This document shows, one piece after another, positions 7,003-52,598 of a DNA stretch of 64,000 nucleotides; the first letter of the stretch is position 1, and each line of letters begins with the position of its first letter. Below the pieces are notes generated by a model. That model ran no database searches, was not told the origin of the DNA, and saw nothing but the letters and a program-made list of their open reading frames with translations. The position numbers and the translations under genes were made by a program. Source of the stretch: Chiloscyllium plagiosum. Taxonomy: Eukaryota. Location: contig NC_057719.1 in NCBI RefSeq assembly GCF_004010195.1, positions 18,257,438 through 18,321,437 of the forward strand, in the 5' to 3' direction.

Positions 7003-7084
7003 AAATTCACACAACACCAGGTTATAGTCCAACAGGTTTATTTGGAAGCACTAACTTTCAGAGCACTACTTCTTCATCAGGTGG
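7003..7084 (-). mobile_element. PLE-derived short element, family B, with decayed hammerhead
   Basis: cacacaacaccaggttatagtccaacagg...cttcatcaggtg, homologous to 14685 and 32531. Confidence 0.75.
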
Positions 7085-7089
7085 ATCAA

Positions 7090-7870
7090 CTTATGGTTGG
7101 AAGCATGTGGGGAGACCAAGACCGCAATTCTAAATTGACTACAGGAGCAGAGAGACCTGAGCATATGTCTACATAAATCAGTAAGGGTGGTAGGAAAGGC
7201 TAGGAGTGCAACTTATCAATGGTACAATATCTTAGACTTTAGTAATGGTAGTATAGAATACAAACAGTAGGAGGTTATGTTCAATCAGGAGAAAGCACTG
7301 AAAATATTTTAAAAACGGTTTCAAACACAAGAAATTTCAGTAGATAGATCTGAGAAGTTATGATTATATTCCTTGGAACAGAGAAGATCAAGGAGGAACT
7401 TGATGGAGATATTCAAAGCCATGAGTGACTGGACAGATTAGACAGAGAAAAATCTCCCATTGGTGAAAGGATGGAGAGCAATAGGGCACAAAATAAAACA
7501 ATTGACAGGAAGGGCAATACTTCAATGAGTGAAAACATTGACATACGAGTTTTGTGATCTGGAATGCACTGAGAATGTGATTCAATCAAAGCATTATAGA
7601 GGGGATTTGATTAATATCTGAGAAGGCAGACTGCACAGTGTTTTGGGAGAAGGCCAGGGCCTTGCACTAGATTCCTGATGAAGGGCATTTCCCCGAAACA
7701 TTGATACTCCTGCTCCTCGGATGCTGCCTGACCTGCTGTTCTTTTCCAGCACTATACTCTCGACTCTGATCTCCAGCATCTGCAGTCCTCACTTTGGACT
7801 ACGTAAGTTACTCCTATGGAAACGCAAAAACTGGCCAAATGACCTCCTTCTGCACTGCATCCATTCTGAG
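7090..7870 (+). mobile_element. Old CR1 3' fragment, interrupted by a PLE-derived element
   Basis: Degenerate CR1 3' motifs (ccttggaacagagaag...ggaacttgatggagatattcaaa; ctggccaaatgacctccttctgcactg). Confidence 0.7.
7671..7795 (+). mobile_element. PLE-derived short element, family C, with hammerhead motif
   Basis: AUUC-CUGAUGA-A-GGG-CAUUUC-CCC-GAAA-CAUU-GA, followed by the family C body ctcctcggatgctgcctgacctgctg. Confidence 0.8.
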
Positions 7871-11266: not shown

Positions 11267-11481
11267 AAAAACAAAAGAACTGCCAATGCGAGAATTCAGA
11301 AACAAAATCAGAAATTGCTGGAAAATCTCAGTAGGTCTGGCAGCATCTGTGAAGAGAAATGAAAGTTAACTTTTCAGGTTTGGTGACACTTCCTCAGAAC
11401 TGTTCTGAAATGTTAACTTTGATTTGAGTTCACAGATGTTGCCAGACCTGCTGAGTTTTTTCCAGCAGCCTCTGTTTTTGT
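11267..11481. mobile_element. PLE-derived family A fold-back (inverted-repeat) element
   Basis: Arms cagaaattgctggaaaatctcagtaggtctggcagcatctgtgaa and ttcacagatgttgccagacctgctgagttttttccagcag; 17-bp TSD ttcagaatggtcctgta at 11250-11266 and 11482-11498. Confidence 0.85.
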
Positions 11482-14684: not shown

Positions 14685-14850
14685 ATGATTTGAAGGTGCC
14701 GGTGTTGGGCTGGGGTGTACCAAGTTAAAAAAAGGTGACATCAGGTTATAGTCCAACAGGTTTATTTGGAAGCACTAGCTTTCGGAGTGCTGTTCCTTCA
14801 TCAGGTGGTTGTGACACAGAATAAGGTCGCAAGACACAGAATTTATAGCA
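14685..14850 (-). mobile_element. PLE-derived family B element
   Basis: Homologous to 32531-32757; carries the intact-core hammerhead at 14773-14807. Confidence 0.8.
14773..14807 (-). ncRNA. Minimal type-I hammerhead ribozyme motif (family B)
   Basis: CAC-CUGAUGA-A-GGA-ACAGCAC-UCC-GAAA-GCUA-GUG: stem I CAC/GUG, stem II GGA/UCC, palindromic AGCU, CUA triplet. Confidence 0.75.
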
Positions 14851-16182: not shown

Positions 16183-16385
16183 ACTCCAGAGATGGAAATG
16201 TGTTGCTGGAAAAGCGCAGCAGGTCAGGCAGCATCTAGGGAACAGGAGAATCGACGTTTCGGGCATTAGCCCTTCTTGAGGCAAACGTGGGTACTGCAGT
16301 GGGTCCTACTCCTGATGAAGGGCTCCTGCCCAAAATGTCCATTTTACTGCTCCTCGGATGCTGCCTGACTTGCTGTGCTTTTCCA
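16183..16385. mobile_element. PLE-derived family C fold-back element with two decayed hammerheads
   Basis: Arms ~16204-16281 and ~16311-16388 are reverse complements; near-TSD gcattattg (16174-16182) / gcattactg (16386-16394). Confidence 0.8.
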
Positions 16386-17705
16386 GCATTACTGTAATCT
16401 GAGTTCAATCACTTCTAATTTTGATCCAAGCTCTTTGCTCAAGTTGCAACTGATGCAATATTGCAATTGGTATGTCAAGTACCCATGACACTGGGTCTGC
16501 AAAGTTATTGCAATTTTTGACACATTAATTAAGGAGAGACGTAGGAAAAATGGATGTGGTCTTTCTGCACTGTAACTTGAATTGGAATCCATATGATTCT
16601 GGAAAAAGTGTTATAAAGCCATAAAATATCATTTTAACTGGAAAAAAGATATTCATTATTCCAATTTGTGAGTGTAGACAATATAGATCTTTGTTCAATT
16701 TGTTTAAACACTTTCATACCCATCCTCACTTGCAAACATTCCAAGCAACAACCTGACATAGTGTAATAATAGTGTCATTAATAGTTTAAACTAAATCCTT
16801 TAGCTCGCAATAGGTTAATGTCTCAAAACTGGCTAATAAATGGGTATGAAACAATGAAAAAGATACTGCTTGGAGGCAAAATATGGGGGATGATGAAACA
16901 TAAAGGCATATAAAGGAGACAATCTACTTGCTAAAGGCTGACCAAGCATTCTGACTGATAGAGTCCTCTTAATTGCTAATAATTCTACCTTCCTTCATTA
17001 TATCTTACACCTTTGCCCTCTGATTCAATTACCAGTTACTGAGAAGTAAGAGAAAGACAATCGGTTTGCCACAATCTGACCATTGTTTAGTCTAGAGCTG
17101 TCACATGACCGAACATATCTGTATGACCATTTTACTGACCTGAACTCTTTTGCTAAATTGACTTCATCTGTTTATTCTTGGGACTATTCAACAAAGTGAC
17201 CTTGAAAATAATGTGCAGCCTTGCTAGTTAGTCTCTCATGTTATAAAGCGTACATTTCAAACTTTAAAGGGCTCTGCTTTTCTTTCCCACCAACAGGATA
17301 ACTGCTGTTTTTAGAAGAACGAGAAGCAATGGCAATTTGACCTGCTACTGTTTCAGAAGAAGTAGGGCTAAACCAGGAAGGAAACTGATTCTGAGGGAAT
17401 TTGGTACCCTCAATGGGAGAAAGACCCCACCCTGTTCAAGCAACAGCAGAACTGAGTACTTGGCTCAGGTAGGACTGTAAGCACCTCTAAATAGAACACC
17501 GATAATGACCAGACCAGGACTTTTGGCTAAAGATTAATTGCTTTTCTGAGATATTGGGCAGGTTCATTTTGAAGGCCAGGGAAGGCAGAAAGAAAGGTGA
17601 TGGTGGAGTGGGGTTGGGGGGAGGGGTCAATAATCAAAGGCTGGGCTGGGTGTGGTGGGAGACATGAGGTCCTTTCATGGTTTTGAGGAGAAAAGGTCCT
17701 TCTGA

Positions 17706-20310: not shown

Positions 20311-21039
20311 AAATATCAGTAAAAACTGAAACAAAGATAGTAGTTAGCTTGACATAAATGATAGCAAAATCTAAATAAATTTTTAAATCCTATGTTTCAA
20401 TGAAATAATGCAGTAAATTTAATACTTTAAGAGGTTTCAGAACCTGCTGAGTTACAGTACAGAACTGTTTTAAGATGGGATGAGAGTTATCATCAGCGTC
20501 ATCATTACTTTCAAAACAACAGGACCTAACATCACTGAGTACTGCACTGTACGTTTCTGGAAACTCTTTACCAGAAAGCACGAGAGCCGACTGACCACGT
20601 GATGTCAATATGGAGTCCAGTCCTCTGCGCACCCCAACACCTAGTGCCAGGGATGGGATTGCACCATAACTAATAATAGATTGCTTCATAAAAAGAAGGG
20701 TCAGCAATTCACAAATCATATGACAGGCAAATCAAGTTTACAAAACGTGTGCTAATATTAAAGCTCTGTCAATTGAACCTGTCACCCATAGAGAAAGTTG
20801 TCTCACCTCTGAATTGCTGTGTGAGATGTACGGACTATTCAACAGTCTCTATTAGAGGGCTAATGCAGAAGGGAATACCAAGTTTGCAAATGGCAAGCAA
20901 AGATTTGCAGAAATCAGCAGGGACTTGAAATTCCATCCAGCGGCGGAGACTGTTTCAGAAATAATAGATGCACAGAGCTTAATATTGGACTTCACCCCAC
21001 CCTAGAAAGTTCATTCTTTTACCTCAGAACAAGGTTCAT

Positions 21040-21400
21040 CATGTCAACTGATAAATCCACAAAAATAGACTGGGCCATTGTGAGGCAACAATTAATTGAA
21101 AGGATGGCAAAGAATGCACTGATAATCTTAGGAAGATGGCAGTGAATGGTAAGGAGTTCATGGCAGAAGTTATTCAGCTTAGCTTCGGGGATTGAACTTG
21201 ATGCGATATCCTTTGAGAGCACTGGAGAAGGAGGTTGAGGTTACTGATCTGGTAGAGTCAGTGATAGGCATTACAATGAGTACAGTGAAGGATACCAAAG
21301 GCAAAACTGAGGGAGGTTGTATGTTCATCAAGAGGAGACTCAAGCATAGGACAGAAACTAGATGCTGTACAATGAACAGCTCAACTCTTCATACCTGATC
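21040..21400 (-). mobile_element. Very old L2-like LINE remnant
   Basis: Minus strand ctctaccagatcagtaacctcaacctccttctccagtgctctc loosely resembles the YRPISNLPFLSKVLE coding region. Confidence 0.35.
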
Positions 21401-22159
21401 AGTTACCTGCAAACATGAAATGGGAGCGTTTTTAAACTTATTCTCCTGTGTGAGATTGGTGCTTCTGGCAAGACCAAGATGTTATCCATCTCTATTCACT
21501 CTTGAATTGAGTGGGTTTGCCAAGTTATTTCAGTGGCAAGTTTAGAATCAAACATATTGTTGCTCTGGAGTTTCAAGACTATATTAGAATGGCAGGTTTT
21601 CTGCCCTGAAGGAATGCTGTGAGATATTCACTGCTCATCCAACAACATAACCACCCTCAAGGAATTCCATCCAGCCAGGACTACTTATTGGACCAACAGT
21701 ATTGCCTTCGCACTCAACATCAACCTTCCATTAGTGGTGCTTTGTGACTGCAGTAGCTGCTATGTGCATGAAGTTCTGTCATAACAGAACAGACAACTTT
21801 GCAAGTATCCCATTACTTTGACCACCAAGGAGGACTAGACCAGCAATGTGAGGGGAAAACCATTAGCCTCAGACTCTCCTTGCCCCATCCTGATTTAGCC
21901 ATATACTTCATCATTGCTAAAATTCTCTATGCTTTATCATTTTGTGGCTACTATGGTCAAAAAGACTGCCATGTTTAAGGAGCTGGCCCAGCAGCACCTT
22001 CCCAAGGCAATTAGTGGTGGGTAATAAATACGACTTTGCTTTAATTATTGACATCTGCAGAACAAATAAATACATTATTAAAAGGAAAGATAGTTTTGTG
22101 GAATTATTTCAACAACTGTGACCTACACTACTTTTTGAAATTAATTATAGAATCATAGA

Positions 22160-22250
22160 AGGTTAAAATCGGCTCATGCCCGAAACGTCGATTCTCCTGC
22201 TCCTTGGATGCTGCCTGACCTACTGCCTTTTTCTGCAACACATTTTCAGC
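22160..22250 (+). mobile_element. Truncated PLE-derived family C element inserted in a CR1 tail
   Basis: ggctcatgccc-gaaa-cgtc-gattc (3' half of the hammerhead) plus body; 14-bp duplication tatagaatcataga at 22146-22159 and 22251-22264. Confidence 0.8.
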
Positions 22251-22712
22251 TATAGAATCATAGAGTTATACAGCATGGAAACAGAGCCTTTGGCTCTATT
22301 CAACCATGCTGACCACATCTCCTAACCAAACTAGTCCCATTTGCAAGCTTTTGGCCCATATCCCTCAGTACCATACCTATCTATGTAATTGTCCAAATGT
22401 CTTTTGAATGTTGTAATTGTACCTGCCTCGACCACTTCCTTTGACAACTCGTTCCATAAATGCACGCCACCCTCTGCGTAAAAAAGTTGCTCCTTAGGTC
22501 CCTTTTAAATCTTTCCCTTCTCACCTTAGTTTTAGACTGTCCTGCCCTCGGGAAAAGACCAGTGCTATTCAATGTCCCTCATGGTTTTATGAACTTCTAT
22601 AAGGTCACCCCTCAAGCTTCTAGGCTCCAGGGAAAGAAAGTCCCAGCATATCCAGCCTCTCCTTACAACTCAAACCTTGCAGTCTGGGTAACGTCCTTGT
22701 AAATCTTTTTGC
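22251..22712 (-). mobile_element. CR1 3' fragment
   Basis: RERFKRDLRSNFFTQRVA; tagaatcataga tail. Confidence 0.9.
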
Positions 22713-25543
22713 AGCACTTCTGGACATATCCAAAAGTTTAACTTCAAACTGCTCATTGTTTCAGTCAATTAAATGAATCCATGCTAAAGTTGGTTACTAA
22801 ACTCTTCCTTGCCAAGTTACAAACTTGTGATGTGTTAAACAAAACGTCCTGCTTGTTTCTGATCCATAGTTTCAGAAATGCTGGGCTTTAAACTTCCGCT
22901 TCAGCTTGCTATTTCCCCTCCTGAAGAAGGGACTGGGTGCAAGGTTATGGCTGTACAAGCATAGGAGTGGGATTTCTCCCCTCAATCACTGTTTCAATAT
23001 CAAATACAAAAGGCAAACACCTCACATGCCTGTCACACTTGGAGCATCACATTTTGAGGTGTCAAAAGACGGTAATAAGGCTGTGATTTCAAGCTGGTTT
23101 CCTCTGACTTGTAGCCAAAAATTTACAAGCACCTGCCCATCTGAAAAATTCCCTTATCAATGGCAATTACCCTCTAATTGACCTCTCATTAAACCTATTT
23201 TAAACACAGCTCCACATTACACAATGTAAAACTCCTGTTGATTTATCTAGCCATACTGTGCTGGAGGAGATCAACCCATAATAAAATTCATATTAATGTG
23301 TATCCAATATGCTAAAGCTGTCCTCTGCTTTGTAAAATCACTTTTTAGAAAGTTCTGGTAAATCAACCATGCCTTTATCCTCATTTCTTTAATATATGCA
23401 TGAAGAGGGTGTCTTGTCTTGTACCAGGTAATTCATTAGGATGGCTATCGAGAGTGCAAGTTTTATCTATTCAATATTTGTTATAGTTTCTCTTAAGTAT
23501 ACTACATAATGGGCCCTATATTCAGAGGAGTAGTAATTTTACCACCTAAATTACACTTTCCTATCATTTTTCTATGGCTAAGCAGATACTGCATCATTCT
23601 CATTGTTAATGAATTCCAATTGTTCTATAAATCCCCACAGTTTGATATGCAGCTGAAGTTATATGGCAGATTTGTGACCAAATATTTCTCTTATAAAGTA
23701 GTAATATTAAACTGTATTCAAAAAAAGCCTTAATTGCACACATTCAGTGCTCAAAAAAACTGATTTAGCATCATCACTGGCCTTAATCTAGTTTATTATA
23801 CCCTTTAATTTTTGGCTTTGTTGGTAATTTATTGCATAGGTGGTAATGTATAATACTTGTGATTAATTCACCACCCACAACTCAACTTCAGAGCAATAAT
23901 GGTTAACGTACATTTAAGGTTCAAAGCACAATTTGCAGCGAGTATTTCTGCAGAAGGACATCTCTGTTCCCTTTTCCATTCTGATTGAGTCACATGTGGG
24001 ATCATTTTTTTGACACCATTTTGTTTTTCTGTAAGTCTTATCTTGTCTTATTGTTTCGCTGAGTTACACAGAATGTGAGTGGAGGTGGTCAAGGACATAA
24101 AGACACGTTGATGCGGTAAGACAAAGAGAGGGACACTGCATATTGCAGTAGGTTATACAGACAGGGACCAAGAGTTACATGAAGATTGGTATGTGGAGGA
24201 AGGCAGATAAAGGGCAGAAACATAAATAATGTTACTAGTTAGAGGGTGCAGAGATGGGTTGAAAGGGAAGGAGAAAAAGAGACAGAAGAACAAGGATTCT
24301 AAAGAAAGCAAATCAACACAGAAAGCGACAGACACCAAGGATAGGGATGGGCATAAACATCAGGACATTGAAAAATGCAGAGTTCAATTCAATGCTGGTG
24401 TTGAAATAGGTAAGCATGGCAACTATTATAGAAACAAACAGATCTCGGGTCAAATGCAACACAAGGATTTTGGACATGATTTGATGATTAGTTTAGAGAA
24501 AAGAGAAATGCCAAACAGGGCCATAAAAGGTGTGGAGAGGCACATATAGGAAACAAAAGACAATGAGAGACAATTCAGATAGTTACACACTGTAGGTCAG
24601 AAAAATGGAATGGAAATCATATCAGTCTTGCATGGCATTCATCTGCTACTTGAAAGATTTCAGGCCATTCCATCTGCCTACGTGTGGCATCGGTACAGGT
24701 AACCTTTGATCTTGTCAGGATATTTATTGTCTGGAGACTGGCACCCTTTATGCATGTGTCAATGTGTATGTAAGTCTGCTGGTGAAATAAAAACAGCACT
24801 GAATCTATAGATTCTACTAGCACCAGCGTTTCAGCTTATGCTACTTTTTAAAGGTACTTTAAACCACCCTTCTTATTTTCTTGGTTTCCCAGGAAATGGA
24901 CAACACTTATTATTCTTTCCTGTCAAGATGATGATAAACCCTGCTGTATTTGAATAGCCACTCAGAAGATTAACAGTAAAGTATCACTAAAATGGATTAG
25001 CTTTATATCTTCTGCGTTACCTAAGGCTGGAAACTTGAGTATGCATTTTTCTGAACTTAATTTCTTTAATGTTTTATTTGCTGTCAAGTCTTTCTCAAAA
25101 GAAGCATGCTTCATCATCATACTAGGCTGCAAAACATCATTATTGCATTGAGCCTAGTCTGATTGCACAACCAATTTAACCAAACTTCTCAATTGATTGG
25201 TTTCTTCCCTGGATGGGGGATCATTTTTCATTGATGACTTGGCCATCAGGATATTATTAACTTTTCCAAGTCAAAATGTTGATCTAAAGTCACTCCTGAC
25301 TTATTCTGCTTCATACCTCAACCTAAACAACACCTGACTTTTAATCCTAAATTTCCTCTTTCTTTTCTTGATCATATATTGCTCAAAGTCTGTCGAAACT
25401 TCTCATAAAAAAGTCATGACGTGGATCATAAAAGCGCCTGTTAGTTTCTCTTTGTAGAACACTACTGATTGTGCTTTGAATTGAATACAAACTACTTTCA
25501 GCAAGATGGACTGAACTGAGAATATCATATTCTTGTGACATCA

Positions 25544-32530: not shown

Positions 32531-32757
32531 CATGATTTGGAGATGCCACTGTTGGACTGGGGTGTACAAAGTTAAAAATCACACAACACCAGGTTATAGT
32601 CCAACAGGTTTAATTGGAAGCACAAGCTTTCAGAGTGCTGCTCCTTCATCAGGTGGTTGTGGAGTAAACAATTGTAAGACACAGAATTTATAGTAAACGT
32701 TTACAGTGTGAGGTAACTGAAATTATACATTAAAAATAATTGTGTTGTTTTTAACCT
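32531..32757 (-). mobile_element. PLE-derived family B element with a short inverted end
   Basis: 11-bp TSD tgtctcaatgt (32520-32530, 32758-32768). Terminal tgtgttgtttttaaccttgt is an imperfect reverse complement of internal acaaagttaaaaatcacaca. Confidence 0.85.
32621..32655 (-). ncRNA. Minimal type-I hammerhead ribozyme motif (family B)
   Basis: CAC-CUGAUGA-A-GGAG-CAGCA-CUCU-GAAA-GCUU-GUG; core intact, G-U wobble at the base of stem II. Confidence 0.7.
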
Positions 32758-38439: not shown

Positions 38440-39395
38440 CCCCAGTAAGATTTTGAGTGACTTTGGGAGAATATGGAAGGTTTATTAGATTAGGCTGATA
38501 TTTACTGGATGAAATTCAGTGTAATAAAAAGTGAGTCGATATATTGTGGGAGTAAGAAGATGGAGACTATTGAGAGCAAATTTTGCAATTCCTTCATGTC
38601 CTTCTATGCAGCCGGTTTGTATCAGAAAAATGTTAAATAAATCAGATCTACATAAGATCAAGTTACATAAATTCTGACAATTGTTAATGTAATAAATTAA
38701 GTAACTAACTTGTAATTATTTATTGCAATAAGTGTATTTACAATGTAATAACTTTTGAATATTTAGTAATTTATTTGCAATAAATTCAGAATTTTATTAT
38801 TGACAAATAAATAAATAGTTGTATTTATTGAATTTAAATCAATAAAGCAACAAAAGTCCATGGAAGTTTTACAAATTAAAGAAGCAATGAGGTTCTGATA
38901 AATTTGTTGGAGACAAGACTTATGCCACAGTTGGAGTGTTTGTGTGTTGTTTTGGGTGCTCCATTTTGAAAAGATTAATAAAGCTATGGAGGAAATACAA
39001 TGCAGATTCACCAGGATGTAGCCAGGGATGAGGCAATGATAAGTGAAGAACATGGACGGTTTCACAAGAGAATAAGGAAGTATAATTTCCTTTGGTGAAG
39101 AGTCAATAGTGACAGAGTGTGAATTTTAAGATGTCAGTAAGGTATTCAGCAGAAGATCTTAGGACAAAAAAATGTTAGAGCATGTAACACTATGCCACAG
39201 TAAGTATTTGAACTAGAGACCATTGCTGAATTGGAGACCTGTAAAAGAAAGAATTTCTGTACACTGGAATCAGCAAATGATACAAGGTAACTGTGAGAAG
39301 ACAGGGTAGTGAGGTAAGATTTGGACTGCTCTAACAGAAAGTGCACACAGGTACAATGGGATGAAGGACTTATTTCATCACTCCAAGCTCTGCGC
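38440..39395 (+). mobile_element. Very degenerate CR1 3' region with an AT-rich interruption
   Basis: ggatgaaattcagtgtaataaaaagtgag; atacaatgcagattcaccaggatgtagccagggatgagg. Confidence 0.6.
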
Positions 39396-39629
39396 ATTTC
39401 TTTACAAAATGGGCCCACTCAGGCTACTTCACATCAAAAAGCATTTATCATCTGTTCTTACCTTCTGATGGTATTTACAGATTGCTATAGTACCCCTTCT
39501 TAGTTAGCAAACCTCCTACTTTTTTATACTTAGTAAATGTTGCTAATTGCTTCTCATACCCAGTGTTTGTACCTGGATCAGCCTTTTGGCAAACTTTTAC
39601 CAGATATTGGCTAGTGTCATTTTCATGAT

Positions 39630-40800
39630 GGGTTTCTCTCTGTGATGCCTTGTGAGTTTTTTTGCCTCATTAACTAAGTCCCCAATGATGTCTCGGAAGG
39701 GGCCAGTAGAGCTCAATGCAGCTGTCAATTTGATGATTCAATGACCATTGGGATAAGATGGCCACCAGCTACCTCAGATCACAGTTCAGACTCCAGCAGT
39801 TGGCATAGTCCAGTCACTGTGTCCCAGTATAGCTTCCATCTGTGACAACACAGTGTCTCACTCTGGACAAGAAGGCAGATTATTACCTGAATGGAGATAA
39901 ATTGAGGTGCAACGAGCCCTGGATGTCCTTGCACACAAGTAGCTGAAGGTAAGCACACAGGTGCAAGAAGTGGTGAAGAAGGCAAATGGTATATTAGCCT
40001 TCATAGTGAGAGGATTCAAATACAGGAGCAGAAATGGCATGCTGTGTTAGTACAGGATTTTGGTGAGACTGTGCTTTGGTCTCCTTATCTGAGGAAAGAT
40101 TTTCTGGCTGTGAAGGGAAGGCAATGAAGGTTTACCATACTGATTCCTTGGATGGCTGGACCTAGGTAGGAAGAGAGGCAAGTTTGATTTTGGACTATAT
40201 TCACTTAGGATCTTATAGAAACCTATGAAATTCTAATAGGATTAGACAGTTAAATCAGGAAGATTGTTTCTGATGTCCAGGGATTCCAGAACAATGGATC
40301 ATAGTTTAAGGTTACAGGATTAGTCACTTAGTACTGAGATGAAGAACAATATCTTCATCCAGAAAGTAGTGAATCTGGGGAACTGTTCAACAGAGAAAGC
40401 AGTTGAGGTCAAATATTATCAAGATGGAGTTAGATATCGTTCTTTGGACTAAAAGGATCAAAGGGTCAGGGGAGAAAGTGGGAACAGGGGACTGGTCAGT
40501 CAACATCATATTAAATAGCAAAGTAGACTTGAGGGCCAAATAGCCAACACCTATTCCTATTTTCTTAGATTCTGTGTTTCATCTGGAGAAAGTGGCATTC
40601 AGACCTTTAGATCCTTCCTGTACCCTGTGCATTCTGAGAAGCCTTTCAGCTACAACCTCCTCACAGGAAGACTGAACTGTATCTGTGGGAAGTTGGTGCT
40701 GGTCCTGGTCTTGCTGGTGTCTGTGTCCCTCCTCCATTTCTCTGGGCCTTTGTTCCATCACAACCTTGCTGTTGTCTGGCCCATCGGTGATACTTGTAAT
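39630..40800 (-). pseudogene. Fossil PIF/Harbinger (HARBI1-like) transposase N-terminus, split by a CR1
   Basis: Removing the CR1 joins ...FLQM (40580s) to SETLCCHRWKLYWDTVTGLCQLLESEL*SEVAGGHLIPMV..KLTAALSSTGPFRDIIGDL. This resembles the Harbinger pattern SFLQMSE.QC.RRLRLS.ETV..LC.LL...GGH.LPV.VKVT.AL.F.A.GSFQ...GDL. Confidence 0.7.
39865..40578 (+). mobile_element. CR1 3' fragment inserted in the Harbinger fossil
   Basis: caggtgcaagaagtggtgaagaaggcaaatggtatattagccttcat (QVQEVVKKANGILAF); CR1 tail ending ~40575. Confidence 0.85.
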
Positions 40801-42959
40801 GATCCTGTGTGGGGAGCAGAAGAAACAGAGCAGGTTGTTAGTAAAGGGAGCAATCCACATTTGCATCAACACAAATGACAATTTAACTTACTCCTCTCCG
40901 TGTGCCATGGAGCACTCTGACAAGACTGTGTGGACAAGACTGACAAGACTCTGGCTGCTTCTGTGTGGAACCTCGTTGTTGCACTTTATTCTGATGAATG
41001 CCAGTGATGCTTCAAAGCAACTGTAGGAGATTGTGAGTACTGACTCCTTGTGCTTCCAGCCCCACAACACCCAAGAAAGGCACCATTGCAAAACAAAAGA
41101 GCATGTTGCAAAATATGTACAATCCAAGATGATAGGAGATCAGTCCTGTGTCTCTGCACAGCCTATGCAACGTTGGTTATCTTCATGGTTTCTGGTTCAT
41201 GGGTGAGACTTTAAAGACCAGCCAAGGTCTTTTCACAAAGCTGACTATCTTCAATCTGCAATAACCAATGATGATGTGCAGCTTGCTTGTGGCCAGGATT
41301 TGCTCCCCATGCAGTTGGACAATGCTTGTAATTCACTTACACCATGATATGATGGCAAAGGACTTCAGCCTGCAGTCTGCAGATACATGTTTGATGTTAT
41401 AATGCCCTTCAAGGGCCTCCTGTTGCTCAGAAATGGAGCCTACATGCTAAAGATGAATACTGACTTGACCTAGTCTAGGTCTGGCCATAGCTATTTTCTA
41501 TTCTTTTTACCCATTTAGGAATTGACAGATTGTGGAATGCAATCTGGATTTGCTCAGCATGGTAAGTTGCAGTTTCAGTCTGCCAATCAAGCCATCCCGT
41601 CCATCCCCAACACTCCCTGAGCCCCATCATTGCACTTTTGTCCTGCCTATCATCGTTGCCCCACAGATGTCCATTGAAGCCATGGTGGTGATGGCCAAAA
41701 CACCCCTCCTGCAGCATCCCACATACCCTCATGGACTACTGGCCCTTCCCACCCCAGCACTCCTTCCTCCCCCATGTGTTGACCTGCCCAGATTCACCCA
41801 TCTTGCCCCCTCTGCATCCCAGGTCGTTGTCTCCAATTCCCAGCCTTGAATTCTCACACTTCCCTATCACAGAAATGTCCCCTCTTGGGCCTTCACCTTT
41901 GCCTCCCCCCATCTCCAACAAACTGGGACAGACAGCCTCGCCCGGTGACTGGTCAGCCCCTTGACCCCATTTTCTGCAGCTCCACAAATTCCTTGAGTCA
42001 TCACACAAGGCCTGCAAGAGTAGCCATCACTCCCTCTCCTGACTGCAGTGAGACAGATCCTTGACTCTGACCTTACATCCTCTCCTAATTTTCGTTTCAC
42101 TTCGCAGATCTTTGAGCTCCACATGAGGCAGCAGCTTCAGAACCAGAAGTCAAGCTGTCCTGTGCTGACTGTCTGAGCCATGCAGCTTAGAGGGAACTTT
42201 GGCCCTGACTGCCCTTAGCAGCCAGATGACCATGCCCAAGCCCCTGCACTGAGAGTCAGATGCCCATGATAGTTGTACTGGGATCCCCAGACTCACAACA
42301 ATACTCTTGACTTGACTGAGGATTCCTTCACTTGGAATTTAAGGAGTGACCACTTTTTGGAAGCATATGCCACGCGTTGGCTGCCGAGAATCCTGGGGCA
42401 TGTTGTCGTTGTGAGATCGAGCACTATGCTGTACAGTAATATGTTCACCCCCTTGACTAATGGCTGCTGGTATGTGTGCATGCTGAACAGCAAGGCAAAG
42501 CAGAAGGACTGTAAACATTTTAAGGTGTGACTGAACAGATAAAGCAGCAGAAAGCAAGACAAGGTAGCGCAGGGGAACTGTGAGCAACAAAGCAGGCACA
42601 AAGCAAGTGAGTGCTAAGAGAGTGTGTGAGCAGACTTGGTCCAATCCTTGAGCTGGGTACTTGTCCCTGCACACCAAGTGTCCTTGTAGCAGCAATGTTG
42701 GATTATAGTGCAGAAGTGTACGATAAGTGAATCCAAACTGTGCCACGCTGATGTGATAGAATTTTACCCGTCCTGTGCAACGTTGTCTGTGGCTGCTAGT
42801 AGAGGGTGCCATGGGATGTTGATACTTTAACAATGATCTTCTGACTTAAATGTAGGATTATCTCCACTGAAGTACAGCTAACACTCAGCAAATATCAGAA
42901 GGAACAGGTCTCCTTACACCACAACTTCATGCACAGTTGGTTTTCTTCGGGATCAGGCA

Positions 42960-43093
42960 AAAGTGAGTACTGCAGATGCTGGAAATCAGAGTCTAGATTA
43001 GAGTGGTGCTGGTAAAGCACAGCAGGTCTGGCAGCATCCGAGAAGTAGGAAAATCAACGTTTCGGACAAAAGTCCGTCATCAGGAATGGAGGC
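42960..43093 (-). mobile_element. PLE-derived family C element
   Basis: Family C body; 8-bp duplication atcaggca at 42952-42959 and 43094-43101. Confidence 0.85.
43052..43087 (-). ncRNA. Minimal type-I hammerhead ribozyme motif (family C), intact core
   Basis: AUUC-CUGAUGA-C-GGAC-UUUU-GUCC-GAAA-CGUU-GAUU. Confidence 0.78.
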
Positions 43094-46000
43094 ATCAGGC
43101 ATACTCCCACTAGTGGGAAGACACCAAGATTCATGGCAACATTGACAGGTAAATATTTTAAAAGATACCTATGATCGCACTTACCTCTATATGTGAATTG
43201 GATCCACTTGAATCACATCTGCATCATGTCTGGTCAGTGTTGGATTGTATTCCAAGGAATTTCAAGCCTCATTTCCAATGCATATCCTTTTTTCTGTAAA
43301 AACATTATCTTTTTAAAGAAATTTTATCAAATTGGCTGAAGGCAATTTTCTGTCACCAAATCTATACTGGGTATGCTTCATTATGTTATCATTCATGTAA
43401 TTCTTAATTCTAGAACTGTAGTACAGAAGATGACTAAAATACTAACTTTTTATCTAATTTACTTTTCCATCTTGTTTTCAAGGTGTTGAATTAACAACCC
43501 TTCAGTCCCATCAGGAATGCTACATCCTGTTTTGGATATGACATCATTTTATAATCTTGGTCTTCATGCAATAATGTGGTTGGTTTAATATAAAGATAGA
43601 ATTTCGCTTATTTTCAAACTGGAAAATAAAAGCCAAGAGATTAGCAAGTCAGTGGCCTGCTCAACCATGAGAGAGAATTGACTGGAAAATTATTCCCAAA
43701 GGTTGGAGTGGGAAAATTTGGTGCATCAACATTAAGATGGTCCAATTTGACTGAATAGTCTGTTTCTATACTTAACATTCAATATGTGTAAACAGAGGTT
43801 GAGCTTTGACATGTGGATCTGTGTTTTGCATGAATTTCTTAGAAATCCAAAAGCAATGGTCAACTCTCATCAGCCAATGTCAAATGCACAGTGGCTTTCA
43901 TAACTTAATATGTAAAAATTTATTTTGTTGCAATAGTGCAGGAAGCCTGCCCTAATCCCAGCATTAACCATCAACAGCTGACCTCCATTTATTGCCCCCA
44001 ACGTAGACCTCCCCAGAGACCAAAGCACAGCTCCATCCACTTGTAGGATTAACAGCTGCATGGGAGACTGGGCATTTGTAGAGCATTGAAGTACTCACTG
44101 TAACTCTCTCCCTTATCTAAGGCTTATTATGTGGAATAAGGTCTGTGGCAACATTGGTTTAACAAGCATGTGCATTTTATCACTGTTAAATAAACTGTGG
44201 CCGCAAACATTCCGACGCCAGTTAAATTATAGGTTTGTTTTAAGATGAATGCCTGTTTCTGTCTTTCCTTTTTTCTTCTAAACATGGCCATAATTTCCAT
44301 TCAGTAAATGAAATCTGTGCGGCCTAGTGTGGGAAAATGATTCAGTCAAGCTAATGTGGCAATTCAGTATGGCAGCTATTATCACTTTTGCTTGAAGGCA
44401 AGTTCTAATTCCTCTAGCCACTAACCACAGCTATTTTGAAGGTTTTGTATGCCCTACTTATTCATATATGCACATTTAACTGTTGTGGTTGTGACAGTTT
44501 GTGTATTGGGTACTCTTAGTAAAAATAAAGTCCTGCATAATCTGTCAGAAAAGATTTTGTAATCGTTTGACCATCCTGGAGGTTAACTCTTCATGTTGCT
44601 GGATTAGAGTGCTTTAGAACACAACATAAAATGGCTGCTGTTAGGCCTAACCTTAACATCTATTCCATTACATAACCTTCCCTTGATTTAAGGCCTCAGG
44701 TGGGCTGATGATGTTTATTTGATTTTAGGTTTGGAGACGGTACTGAAAGATTTATGGAGAAGTCCAGGCTTGGCAATAGATTAGGGACAGGTTGCTGGGA
44801 GTAAAATACTTCTTATTTGGTTAGGGAATACTGCACCAATTTAAACTAATATGAAGAGTGACTCTACAAATATACATATTGATCCAAAGTGAAAGGATGC
44901 TTTTGACACCTCTAGCTTACATTCAAGATCTCATTATCACATGGTGCTAATGACCTTTGCTTTTCTCCTCTTCCGTAAACTCTCCCTTTGTAGCTTAAAC
45001 CTGGAAATTATATTGTGGGATATTATCATACAAACACTTAATGTGTTAATCAACTTCCTTTGTCCACATGTTTAACGGATGGTTTAAGCCATTTAAACGT
45101 GTTAATGCCTCATTAAAATAACAGATAGGGGAATTTGATGCAGAAGCATTCAGAGCTCCTCTGATAATATTGCACAACATCCTTAAGTCATAAAATGATT
45201 CTTGACGCTTTTCTTTGGCGTGCCTCCAATCTTTCAGTGTCCTTCTAATATTCCTGAAATTAGCCACAACTGATTAAATGTGGTCAGTGTGCAAGGTTTC
45301 ACCAACTCCATAGATTTCTGTGCTCTTGGATCAACCAATATTTTCACACTGTCTGTTTGTGCAATGTGATTGTGAATTATTCCAAGGTCCAGAACTATGT
45401 GCTGAGGGATGCACCAAATCTTGGGTTTAGATGCTGCCAAGGGACAGTAGGGAAAGACCACTGCCTGAGGTCCTCCTACTAAGTTGAATGGGGGTCCATT
45501 CAATTATCAGGCCCTCCCAGTGCCTTGATTACATCTAAATATCGTCTTGTTCAAGTAAGAGATGTCTTTGATTTGTTTGAATAGAATCAACCTCCAATAT
45601 TTGTGTGTATCCTTGGTATGTTACTATACAGAATTGAACTGCGTTTGTGACTATAATATAAAACATACACACACACAAATATGTATATAGTATATTTTTA
45701 TTTCAAACATATACTATATATAGTATATGTTATTTACTAAAGAAATGGCACCACAAGGATATTGAACACTATGACTGTTACAAGTCTAATAAATCTGCCT
45801 GATAATATCCTGGTAAAGTAAGTATCTCTAAAATAAAAATGTACATACAGTGTGATTTAAGGCCATTCATTTTGTCTATCTTTTCCCATTATTGCCACTT
45901 GCCTACGTTCCCTTTGATGCTTACTAATTTGAATTATTTATGTCTTAATTATTACATTAGTTTCTATGAAACTTTTCATTATTTGTTTTTGATACTTTGA

Positions 46001-47407
46001 ATCAATCTGTTTGGATGTGTTATACCACACCTCTGGATAAGTTGGGTCTTGACCTCAGTCCATTCTGGCCCAGAGATAGAGTTACTAATTTAACCAATCT
46101 GTTATGACACATTTCTGCAACTATCATATGCTGAGGTGGGGCTCAAACCTGAACCTTCTGGCTTAGAGGTAGGGACAATATCAATGCTCAGGACCTTCTC
46201 TTATTGTCTGTATTATGTTTAATTAATAGTCATCATTCCACTTACATCATTCCTACCATGCTGCCTTTGCTTCCCATCCTCGGTCCCACATGATTCAGCA
46301 TCTATTCCATTTTGAGACTGAACATTGGAATCTGATCATTTTATTGGGTGACCAACTCAAATGGTAAAGTACTTTAAGTGTTCACTTTTGAAGGAACGAG
46401 TGCTCAATGAAATAACTTATCATTGCAGTAAATCTGCACTGATTTAAAATAAGGTCGTCTTGAACATATCCCAGTCTGCAATTAGCCTTTTTTGATGAAT
46501 TCACACTCGAGTACTTTAACTGAATACTCAACATATACTCAGCATATTAAAAGTGTAACAACAAGGAAATAACATATAATGTGTTGTACTGATCCTATCT
46601 ATTATGTAGTTTTTCTGTCATACCCACAATGATCCTTGTGTGTCTCAACTTGAAGCCAAGATATCGAGCTGCTAAGGATATATTGCCATTTGGTGTTTTG
46701 GTGCTGATGTGACAAAAGTTCCAATGGTTTTTACAACAGAATTTACTGCTGTTGAAATTAAATTGGATTAATGCATATGCTTGCGGTTCTTTGTGGGATT
46801 TTCAGCTGGGACCCAAGTATATCAAACCTTAATGAGATTTAAGGAGCGAACTCTGTTAAACTACAACAGAAGAATGGTCAAGTGTCTTAAAGGAATCATT
46901 TTTGAAAACTGCAAAATTCATCAGGCAGGTGGCTCTTTTGCCACCAACTACTTTTTAAAATAGAAAGTGCCTTATTGGTACAGTATATCAGTCTCACAAG
47001 TCATTTCTGGGTACAATGGCTCTGCACACAACACATGATGAAAAATGTTGCAAGGTTGAAGTGCAATTGGTGGGAGTGAGGATTCAAAGAGCTTTCCAGA
47101 AATAGGTAGTGCATTGTAAAACACATTGTAATGATATTATTCTATCATGAAGCCATGCTTTGCATATTCCTTAATATTTTTGCTCCAATTACTCCAAACA
47201 CTTAGCAATGTATGAGTGAAGACAATTTCATCATCAGTAAAAAGGAACATTTTTATATTTACTAATTTTGTGAAAGTTTTGCAATATTCATTAAGGACAA
47301 ACACCCTGTTGCCGTCATTGACTCAAAATTCCATGAAACTCTATGAGGCCGATATCCCGGCTGGATGAACTGACCAGATTTGGCAGTGCCCTGTTAAACT
47401 TTGTGAA

Positions 47408-47629
47408 AACCGAAAGAAGTGCAGAAGCTGTAAATCAGAAACAAAAACAGAACTTGCCAGAAAAGCTCAGCAGGCCTGGCAGCATCTGTGCAGAGAAATC
47501 AGAGTTGATGTTTCAGATCTGAATGACCCTTCTTCACAGCTGCCAGCTTTGAGGAAGGGTCACCTGACCCAAAACATTTACAGATGCTGCCAGAGCTACA
47601 GAGATTTTCCAGCACCCTGTGTTTTTGCA
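47408..47629. mobile_element. PLE-derived family A fold-back element
   Basis: Inverted arms; 15-bp TSD gttaaactttgtgaa (47393-47407, 47630-47644). Confidence 0.85.
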
Positions 47630-47648: not shown

Positions 47649-47804
47649 AAAAATCACACAATACCAGGTTATAATCCAACAAGTTTATTTGGAATCACTA
47701 GCTTTCAAAGCACTGCTTCTTCATCAGGTGGCTGGTATAACCTGGTATTGTGTGATTTTTCACTTTGTCCGCCCCAATCCAACACTGGCACCTCCACATC
47801 AATG
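47649..47804. mobile_element. PLE-derived family B fold-back element
   Basis: Arms aaaaatcacacaataccaggttata and tataacctggtattgtgtgattttt; 13-bp TSD ctttgtgaagtta (47636-47648, 47805-47817). Confidence 0.85.
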
Positions 47805-47897: not shown

Positions 47898-48108
47898 ATA
47901 ATAAAATAAAATAAAGAACTGCAGATGCTGAAGATCTGAAACAAAATCAGAAATTGCTGGAGAAACTCTGCAAGTGTGGCAGCATCTGTGGAGAGAGAAA
48001 GCAGAGTTAACGTTCTGAAGAAGGTCAATGGATTGAAACACAAACTCTGCTTTCTCTCTACAGATGTTGCCAGACCTGCTGAGTTTCTCCAGCAATTTTT
48101 GATTTTGT
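47898..48108. mobile_element. PLE-derived family A fold-back element
   Basis: Inverted arms; 13-bp TSD ttctcctttttgg (47885-47897, 48109-48121). Confidence 0.88.
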
Positions 48109-51765: not shown

Positions 51766-52598
51766 TTTTATGACACCCCATTTACCAATCGGAAGTAAGA
51801 TATTTAAAGCTCTTTGGTCAGGACTATCTTGAAATGTAAAATAGAATTGCATCCATTTTTTGAATAAGATGTCACAAAGCTGGACCTTTTTTTCTAAAAG
51901 CTGATGCCTTCCTCAACTATACTGTGACCTTGGTTTTTCTTCAGAGGGGTTGTAAACATCTCTCGGTGCTGGTTAGACTGGTTTGTTACAGAGATTAAAG
52001 GATATCGAGAAGCCTTTTTCTTTATATGTAAACAGATGAGATTTCAGGCCAAAGTGGTCATGTTTTAGAAGTGACTTGTATATTGAAAGGGGAGTGGTCA
52101 GCTCTCTAGCTGAGCAGTTCAGTTCCATCCAGAACTGGTTAGGAATTCAACGGTGAACTGTATGGAAACTCTCTTACTTTCTGTCCTTGTAACTTCACCT
52201 TGAAAGTATCTGTTCCATTTTTTGCTGTGTTTTAGGTGATTTGCTTATTGGGACTGTTGTGTATGTTTGGAACAGCATAATTAAGTCCAGTTTGGATAGA
52301 TTGAGTTCTGGATTAGTGGTACTGGAAAAGCACACCAGTTCAGGCAGCATCCGAGGAGCAGTAAAATCGAAGTTTCGGGCAGGAATACGTTTCATCAGGA
52401 ATACAGTTCTGTTGGGGTTCTTTATTCTGTTCTTTGTATTTCATTGTGTAATTTTGTGAATAAATGTTTTGTCTGTTTTAAAACCTGATAGTCAACCTGG
52501 CTAGCTCACTTCAGGTAACTTTCTGAAACAAATTGCAAAGTTATGGTCTGGGTTGCCTGCTGAAGAATGTTTTGAGTGGTCTGGCCTAGTTCATAACA
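51766..52598 (+). mobile_element. Probable solo LTR
   Basis: Starts ttttatgac (like TGTTATGA), ends tcataaca (inverted terminal match, ...CA), AATAAA at ~52459; no TSD seen. Confidence 0.45.
52311..52404 (-). mobile_element. PLE-derived family C element nested in the putative LTR
   Basis: Family C body; CUGAUGA and GAAA are retained but stem II is disrupted; agttctg flanks both sides. Confidence 0.75.

Follow-up and report, generated by a model that had tools for sequence, protein, structure and literature searches.

The window analyzed here is a stretch of 64,000 nucleotides from Chiloscyllium plagiosum. On its minus strand, positions 43052–43087 contain a small hammerhead ribozyme motif in which stem II has an A-U pair at the place where related copies have G-C. 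The first-pass annotation took this double change as a sign of selection on structure in a source subfamily and named the copy the top candidate for an active ribozyme. The locus raises two questions: whether this copy would cut, and whether the A-U pair needs selection to explain it.

The motif and its repeat family

The features of the locus are as follows.

43052–43087, minus strand: minimal hammerhead motif of type I; the comparison was with the descriptor and Fig. S3 of PMC4209133
43077–43083, minus strand: core box CUGAUGA, intact
43076, minus strand: extra nucleotide before stem II, C here and A in the family, with predicted pairing to G12
43064–43075, minus strand: stem II, GGAC/GUCC with a 4-base loop; the altered pair is 43073 with 43066
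43056–43063, minus strand: core box GAAA-CG-U-H with the ACGU palindrome and without helix III; H17 is U
43084–43087, minus strand: 5' strand of helix I; against 43052–43055 it forms two pairs, a U-U mismatch and one more pair
42960–43090, minus strand: solo 131-base insert, likely a Penelope-like pseudo-LTR end, with the hammerhead at its 5' edge (from identity, depth edges and duplication)
42949–42959, no strand: target-site duplication, left copy
43091–43101, no strand: target-site duplication, right copy, matching 42949–42959 at 10 of 11 positions

A direct read of the minus strand from 43087 to 43052 agrees letter for letter with the reading first given, and the core nucleotides are intact. 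Comparison of the window copies also bears out the stem II contrast, GGAC/GUCC here and GGGC/GCCC in copies 16260 and 16320. The CpG dinucleotides had been described as retained. The two that were noted do read as written, but a third, at the cleavage site, was omitted from that description and has decayed. Before stem II, the 43052 copy has a C as its extra nucleotide, where its six siblings have A (five copies) or T (one). Position 17 is C in five of the seven family copies and U in the 43052 copy and copy 7675. Helix I has two contiguous pairs followed by the U-U mismatch, which looks family-wide since copies 7675 and 52380 share it.

Hammerhead-like motifs are enriched in the window, with five matches compared to a mean of 0.49 in shuffled sequence. 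When the published descriptor is applied without its helix I rule there are six matches, compared to 0.14 in 100 first-order Markov simulations. Rfam covariance models gave no hammerhead match in the window (E 1) or in positions 42900–43200 (E 10).

The motif is at the edge of a repeat. The 131-base insert is 77–84% identical to six other copies, which gives seven family copies in 64 kb, and paralogue depth goes up and down at the insert edges, 42960 and 43090. The insert is flanked by the 11-base duplication, although 11 of 298 random placements score equally well; at the one duplication mismatch, 43093, contigs of two related organisms carry the letter of the left copy. There is no tandem array at the insert, which is a solo copy bounded by the duplication. 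By analogy with published end-pieces, 42960–43090 is probably the truncated end of a Penelope-like retroelement. The inserts at 7670–7793, 42960–43090 and 52311–52404 start 5–7 bases upstream of the core and not at the cut site, as judged from their duplications, of which the one at 7662 is weak. A further family copy at 22146–22264 is truncated within stem II and has a perfect 14-base duplication.

The family is very abundant, with 21,000–24,000 contigs aligned to the insert per DNA run. Depth at 43073 is 10,000–30,000 times flank depth, a ratio that is not a copy number. The insert differs from the family majority at 9–10 of 128 positions (about 7–8% divergence) and has a CpG observed/expected value of 0.20. 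It appears to be old, since contigs from two related organisms, which differ by 4.5 and 5.7%, enter it from both flanks; among the junction pieces of these organisms, 31 letters are present on both sides in only one of four. Two scans of viral contigs gave no further family copies, and all nine matches in a scan of genome contigs were bacterial and short, of only 20–27 bases. A set of 22 metagenome loci was considered as family copies and rejected, as these loci belong to other hammerhead families and the similarity ends at the core; at least three other minimal-hammerhead families are present among them.

Coding sequence for a parent element was sought with Pfam. No match was found in any of the 58 reading frames of at least 50 aa at 39,000–47,000. 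Elsewhere in the window 116 of 123 frames of at least 72 aa were scanned (the seven others are simple-repeat frames), and the sole matches are LINE-type endonuclease and reverse transcriptase pieces at 278–1900. No reading frame with a reverse transcriptase and a GIY-YIG domain was found among those scanned.

Several other hammerhead-bearing repeats and palindromes are present in the window. A second family, with an AGCU-type palindrome and a 3-bp helix I, is found on the minus strand at 7052–7080, 14776–14804, 32624–32652 and 47699–47727. The segment 35572–35719, a palindrome of about 150 bases, is composed of two copies of a third family placed head to head; both have a hammerhead-like core, and their stem II is longer and imperfect. 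At 16200–16400, 11276–11467, 47420–47616 and 47915–48094, end-pieces form inverted pairs, head to head, whose hammerhead ends meet in the center, and the hammerhead cores in these four pairs are degraded. A perfect 26-base palindrome is at 45706–45731.

The 43052 copy had also been called the best preserved. This is correct in that it is the sole family copy in the window (one of seven) in which the core is complete, stem II has four Watson-Crick pairs and the ACGU palindrome is intact; it is however no closer to the family. Its motif differs from the family at 4 of 33 positions, with the majority of the other six window copies as the reference, and the siblings differ at 4/33, 4/32, 5/32, 5/33, 6/30 and 11/33. 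The motif is not less diverged than the rest of the copy (4/33 vs 4/46, Fisher p 0.71). Under neutral decay, one fully intact core among seven copies is expected with P 0.46–0.87. All four motif changes miss the constrained core, with P about 0.12 by chance, and this leans slightly toward the original reading.

Predicted cleavage

The top-candidate designation is not supported: the copy is solo, its helix I is 2 bp, and four motifs in the window fit the descriptor better. These are the four second-family motifs listed above, which satisfy the full published descriptor. The 43052 copy fails the strict form of that descriptor because helix I has two contiguous pairs and the minimum is three. A single minimal hammerhead shows no cleavage as a monomer and weak cleavage as dimers and trimers, according to the activity results reported by Cervera and De la Pena (2014, PMC4209133). 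The nearest family copy on the same strand is 9.2 kb away, with stem II and palindrome broken. The nearest descriptor-passing motif on that strand is 4.6 kb away and has the AGCU palindrome, which cannot pair with ACGU. Little or no cutting is therefore predicted for the 43052 copy, as there is no compatible partner in cis. In the fold model, a homodimer with the core held open, i.e., in an active-like fold, is 6.8 kcal/mol above the minimum and has no helix I. In vivo the copy is very probably inert.

Other properties of the motif do not discriminate. The probability that the core is all unpaired is 0.003 here, compared to 0.000–0.030 in 19 distinct natural motifs, and there is no separation between them. 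With values of -1.0 to -2.1, the fold z-scores do not stand out.

G12 is the general base of the hammerhead. In the fold model the extra C pairs with G12 (P 0.98), lengthening the hairpin, and the model also pairs an extra U with G12 (0.85 and 0.91). An extra U at this position is reported to raise hammerhead activity. GUU is listed among active NUH sites in published work. As counted by eye from the figure text, the extra C is present in 11 and U17 in 24 of 56 published representative motifs. Neither is thus a proven defect, as both are found among published motifs. The combination of extra C and GUU triplet, which had been considered as ribozyme-killing, was downgraded, since the letters are natural and the fold model treats an extra U alike.

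Transcription of the locus was examined in one single-cell poly(A) library, about 2 in 100 of the reads. None of the 1190 aligned RNA reads in this run is 99% alike to the locus. The unique flanks are without RNA depth; only eight bins of 29, all in the repeat, had depth, and there was no pile-up of read ends. Family sequence is present in the poly(A) RNA at 42960–43086 on both strands, all of it from other loci.

Published work suggests how such a copy could originate. In the source element, one tandem transcript would contain two motifs whose ACGU palindromes pair with each other, forming helix III, and the paired motifs would cut after the NUH triplet. The RNA end would next be copied at a nick by the endonuclease and reverse transcriptase of the element, resulting in the insertion of short end-pieces. 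The 43052 copy would subsequently have drifted to an inert state. The source-element steps are taken from the literature; for the 43052 copy itself we infer the inertness and the stepwise origin of the A-U pair discussed below. Nick-primed reverse transcription by Penelope elements has been demonstrated in vitro in the work on endonuclease-bearing elements (PMC3846280; PMC11167929).

Origin of the A-U pair in stem II

The double change is real: G-C is replaced by A-U at 43073/43066, and pairing is kept, as first noted. Among the seven window copies this pair is G-C in five, A-U in one (the 43052 copy) and unpaired in one. Selection on structure in a source subfamily, the meaning attached to the change in the first-pass annotation, is nevertheless not supported by covariation, by the frequency of the GGAC half or by a chance model. 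Covariation over the seven copies is not significant, with its score reached in 130 of 500 shuffles. No sibling in the window has GUCC, and none has any of the three stem changes (0/6 for each). In a neutral model, a double change that restores some stem II pair arises in 1.2–1.9% of copies at 8–10% divergence, which scales to hundreds of restoring double changes per 20,000 copies. In a repeat whose copies decay by the tens of thousands, and where a hairpin can serve as the template for its own repair, a compensatory pair in a single copy is a weak sign of selection.

The two halves of the stem differ in frequency among paralogues. The shares of paralogue depth that follow come from an alignment at 88% likeness and are unphased and biased to reference-like copies. 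At 43073, in three organisms, 95.9, 96.1 and 91.8% of the depth has the family letter, as do 33 of 35 RNA reads; the GGAC half therefore has at most 4.1, 3.9 and 8.2% in the three runs. The family letter at 43076 has 98.1, 97.4 and 95.5% (34 of 35 RNA reads), and that at 43066 has 69–70% (38 of 42 RNA reads). Of the depth spanning 43073, at least 15–18% is without the family letter at 43066. The GGAC half is thus rare and the GUCC half appears commoner among close paralogues, and the G-U wobble state, with the GUCC half alone, appears common given this non-family depth at 43066. The contig share at 43056, 9–13% family letter, was discarded as a product of reference-seeding bias; it conflicts with five of the seven window copies and with 38 of 78 RNA reads.

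The explanation that we consider a little more probable than its alternatives together is that the solo insert is a truncated, inert Penelope-like end-piece and that its A-U pair was formed without selection in two steps, via a G-U wobble. The GUCC half, which appears common in close paralogues, would have arisen first and produced the wobble. One further transition, G to A at 43073, would then have restored the Watson-Crick pair.

The alternative that survives best, although we consider it unlikely, is that a minor source lineage had GGAC/GUCC, perhaps with the extra C, fixed by selection, and that the inert solo copy inherited this stem. In run X1 there are approximately 4,000 depth units without the family letter at 43073, compared to 3–5 in single-copy flank, and between a few and a few hundred copies of such a lineage fit under the unphased depth bound. 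Contigs of the right flank start exactly at 43058 in runs X1 and X19, and breaks at this position would result if a few other copies share the same 30-mer. GGAC/GUCC is also the stem in 13 of the 22 metagenome motifs from unrelated families, obtained with a search pattern that allowed either stem (GGGC/GCCC in 9 of 22, the extra C in none), and the extra C is natural, as the count by eye of the 56 published motifs gave it in 11. Against a source lineage, the non-family share at 43073 (4–8%) and at 43076 (2–4.5%) is not above background decay, despite an alignment that favors the reference, and the six window siblings have none of the three stem changes. A rough tally of the unlisted differences in the orthologous contigs favors, by about 4 to 1, changes in this lineage after insertion, a weak and model-dependent figure.

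Next in order, and also improbable, is one short template switch, during DNA replication or reverse transcription, that copied the GUCCG arm over the left arm. Such a switch would yield the G-to-A change and the A-to-C change of the extra nucleotide together, and the compensation would be a mutational product and not the result of selection. The changes at 43073 and 43076 are three bases apart and together turn the stem into a perfect inverted repeat of 5 bp that encloses the 4-base loop. That the third change also perfects the hairpin has a P of about 0.0006 under independent hits, but this value is post hoc, as the copy was selected for the pattern. The published footprint of template switching is a compensatory change with stem extension, and the study that describes it finds an enrichment of 4-base loops; the tract here is 5 bases, however, and the minimum in that study is 6.

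Host retention of the copy for self-cleavage of a minus-strand transcript, with activation by proteins or in trans by one of the many transcribed family copies, is very improbable: the core is intact, the insert appears old and family RNA is found on both strands, but there is no excess of conservation in the motif, helix I is only 2 bp, the one RNA run has neither locus-specific reads nor an end pile-up, Pfam reveals no host gene nearby, and the first base of the X19 contig, 43058 (G16.2), is unaligned, a weak hint from one terminal base at a lost core letter. We give as little credence to the lone hammerhead as a host RNA switch that cuts only when a transcript from any of the thousands of sister copies pairs with its ACGU palindrome in trans. 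If a lone copy did cut in trans in vivo, this would imply a host function for dispersed Penelope hammerheads. On the most probable reading the locus matters little, as one more dispersed minimal hammerhead of a kind known since 2014.

Comparison with known systems

An extra nucleotide between A9 and G10.1 is also found in the (+) hammerhead of Chrysanthemum chlorotic mottle viroid. The review passage on this viroid describes the change of A10 to C as strongly detrimental, but the viroid hammerhead is canonical with three helices, and the effect may not carry over to the minimal form.

The animal non-LTR retrozymes (Li et al. 2026, 10.64898/2026.07.22.740005) are similar in being non-coding and in having a type I hammerhead. 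That preprint relates them to Penelope pLTRs and includes one chondrichthyan case. A retrozyme is defined there as a tandem repeat in which two or more units bear the motif, whereas the 43052 copy is solo. A literature search, with most subscription papers outside its reach, found no paper on Penelope hammerhead motifs in elasmobranchs or Callorhinchus. With this one preprint as the chondrichthyan record, the host group may be thinly covered.

Penelope elements that bear an endonuclease have solo pLTRs and truncated insertions, end-pieces with duplications, and the insert resembles these. In the two studies that describe them, solo or inverted end-pieces have duplications of 8–10 bp (Arkhipova et al. 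2013, PMC3846280; Frangieh et al. 2024, PMC11167929). The present insert differs in that it is shorter (131 bases), has an 11-base duplication and starts 7 bases upstream of the core. Penelope minimal hammerheads are located in the pLTR of an element with a reverse transcriptase and GIY-YIG reading frame, and here the link to such an element rests on the published pattern.

The closest likeness is to the minimal hammerheads of Penelope-like elements described in PMC4209133. The type I layout is the same. The published CUGANGA-H consensus with its extra nucleotide corresponds to CUGAUGA-C here. A helix II of 3–7 bp with G10.1-C11.1 and a loop of 3–10 is required, and the 43052 copy has 4 bp and a 4-base loop. 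The GAAANNUH box with palindromic 15.2/16.2 and no helix III is represented by GAAACGUU. No cartilaginous fish is present in Table S1 or Fig. S3 of that survey. The descriptor asks for at least three contiguous pairs in helix I, and the 43052 copy has two followed by the U-U mismatch. A Drosophila virilis variant with a 2-bp helix I is accepted as a minimal hammerhead in PMC4209133, and on this precedent the 43052 copy is filed as a short-helix-I example and not as a strict match. The minimal hammerheads in the survey are mostly single dispersed motifs in large variable families, as is the case here. By this analogy, the 43052 copy is predicted to work as the minimal type I hammerheads of Penelope-like elements do, in a dimer-dependent manner.
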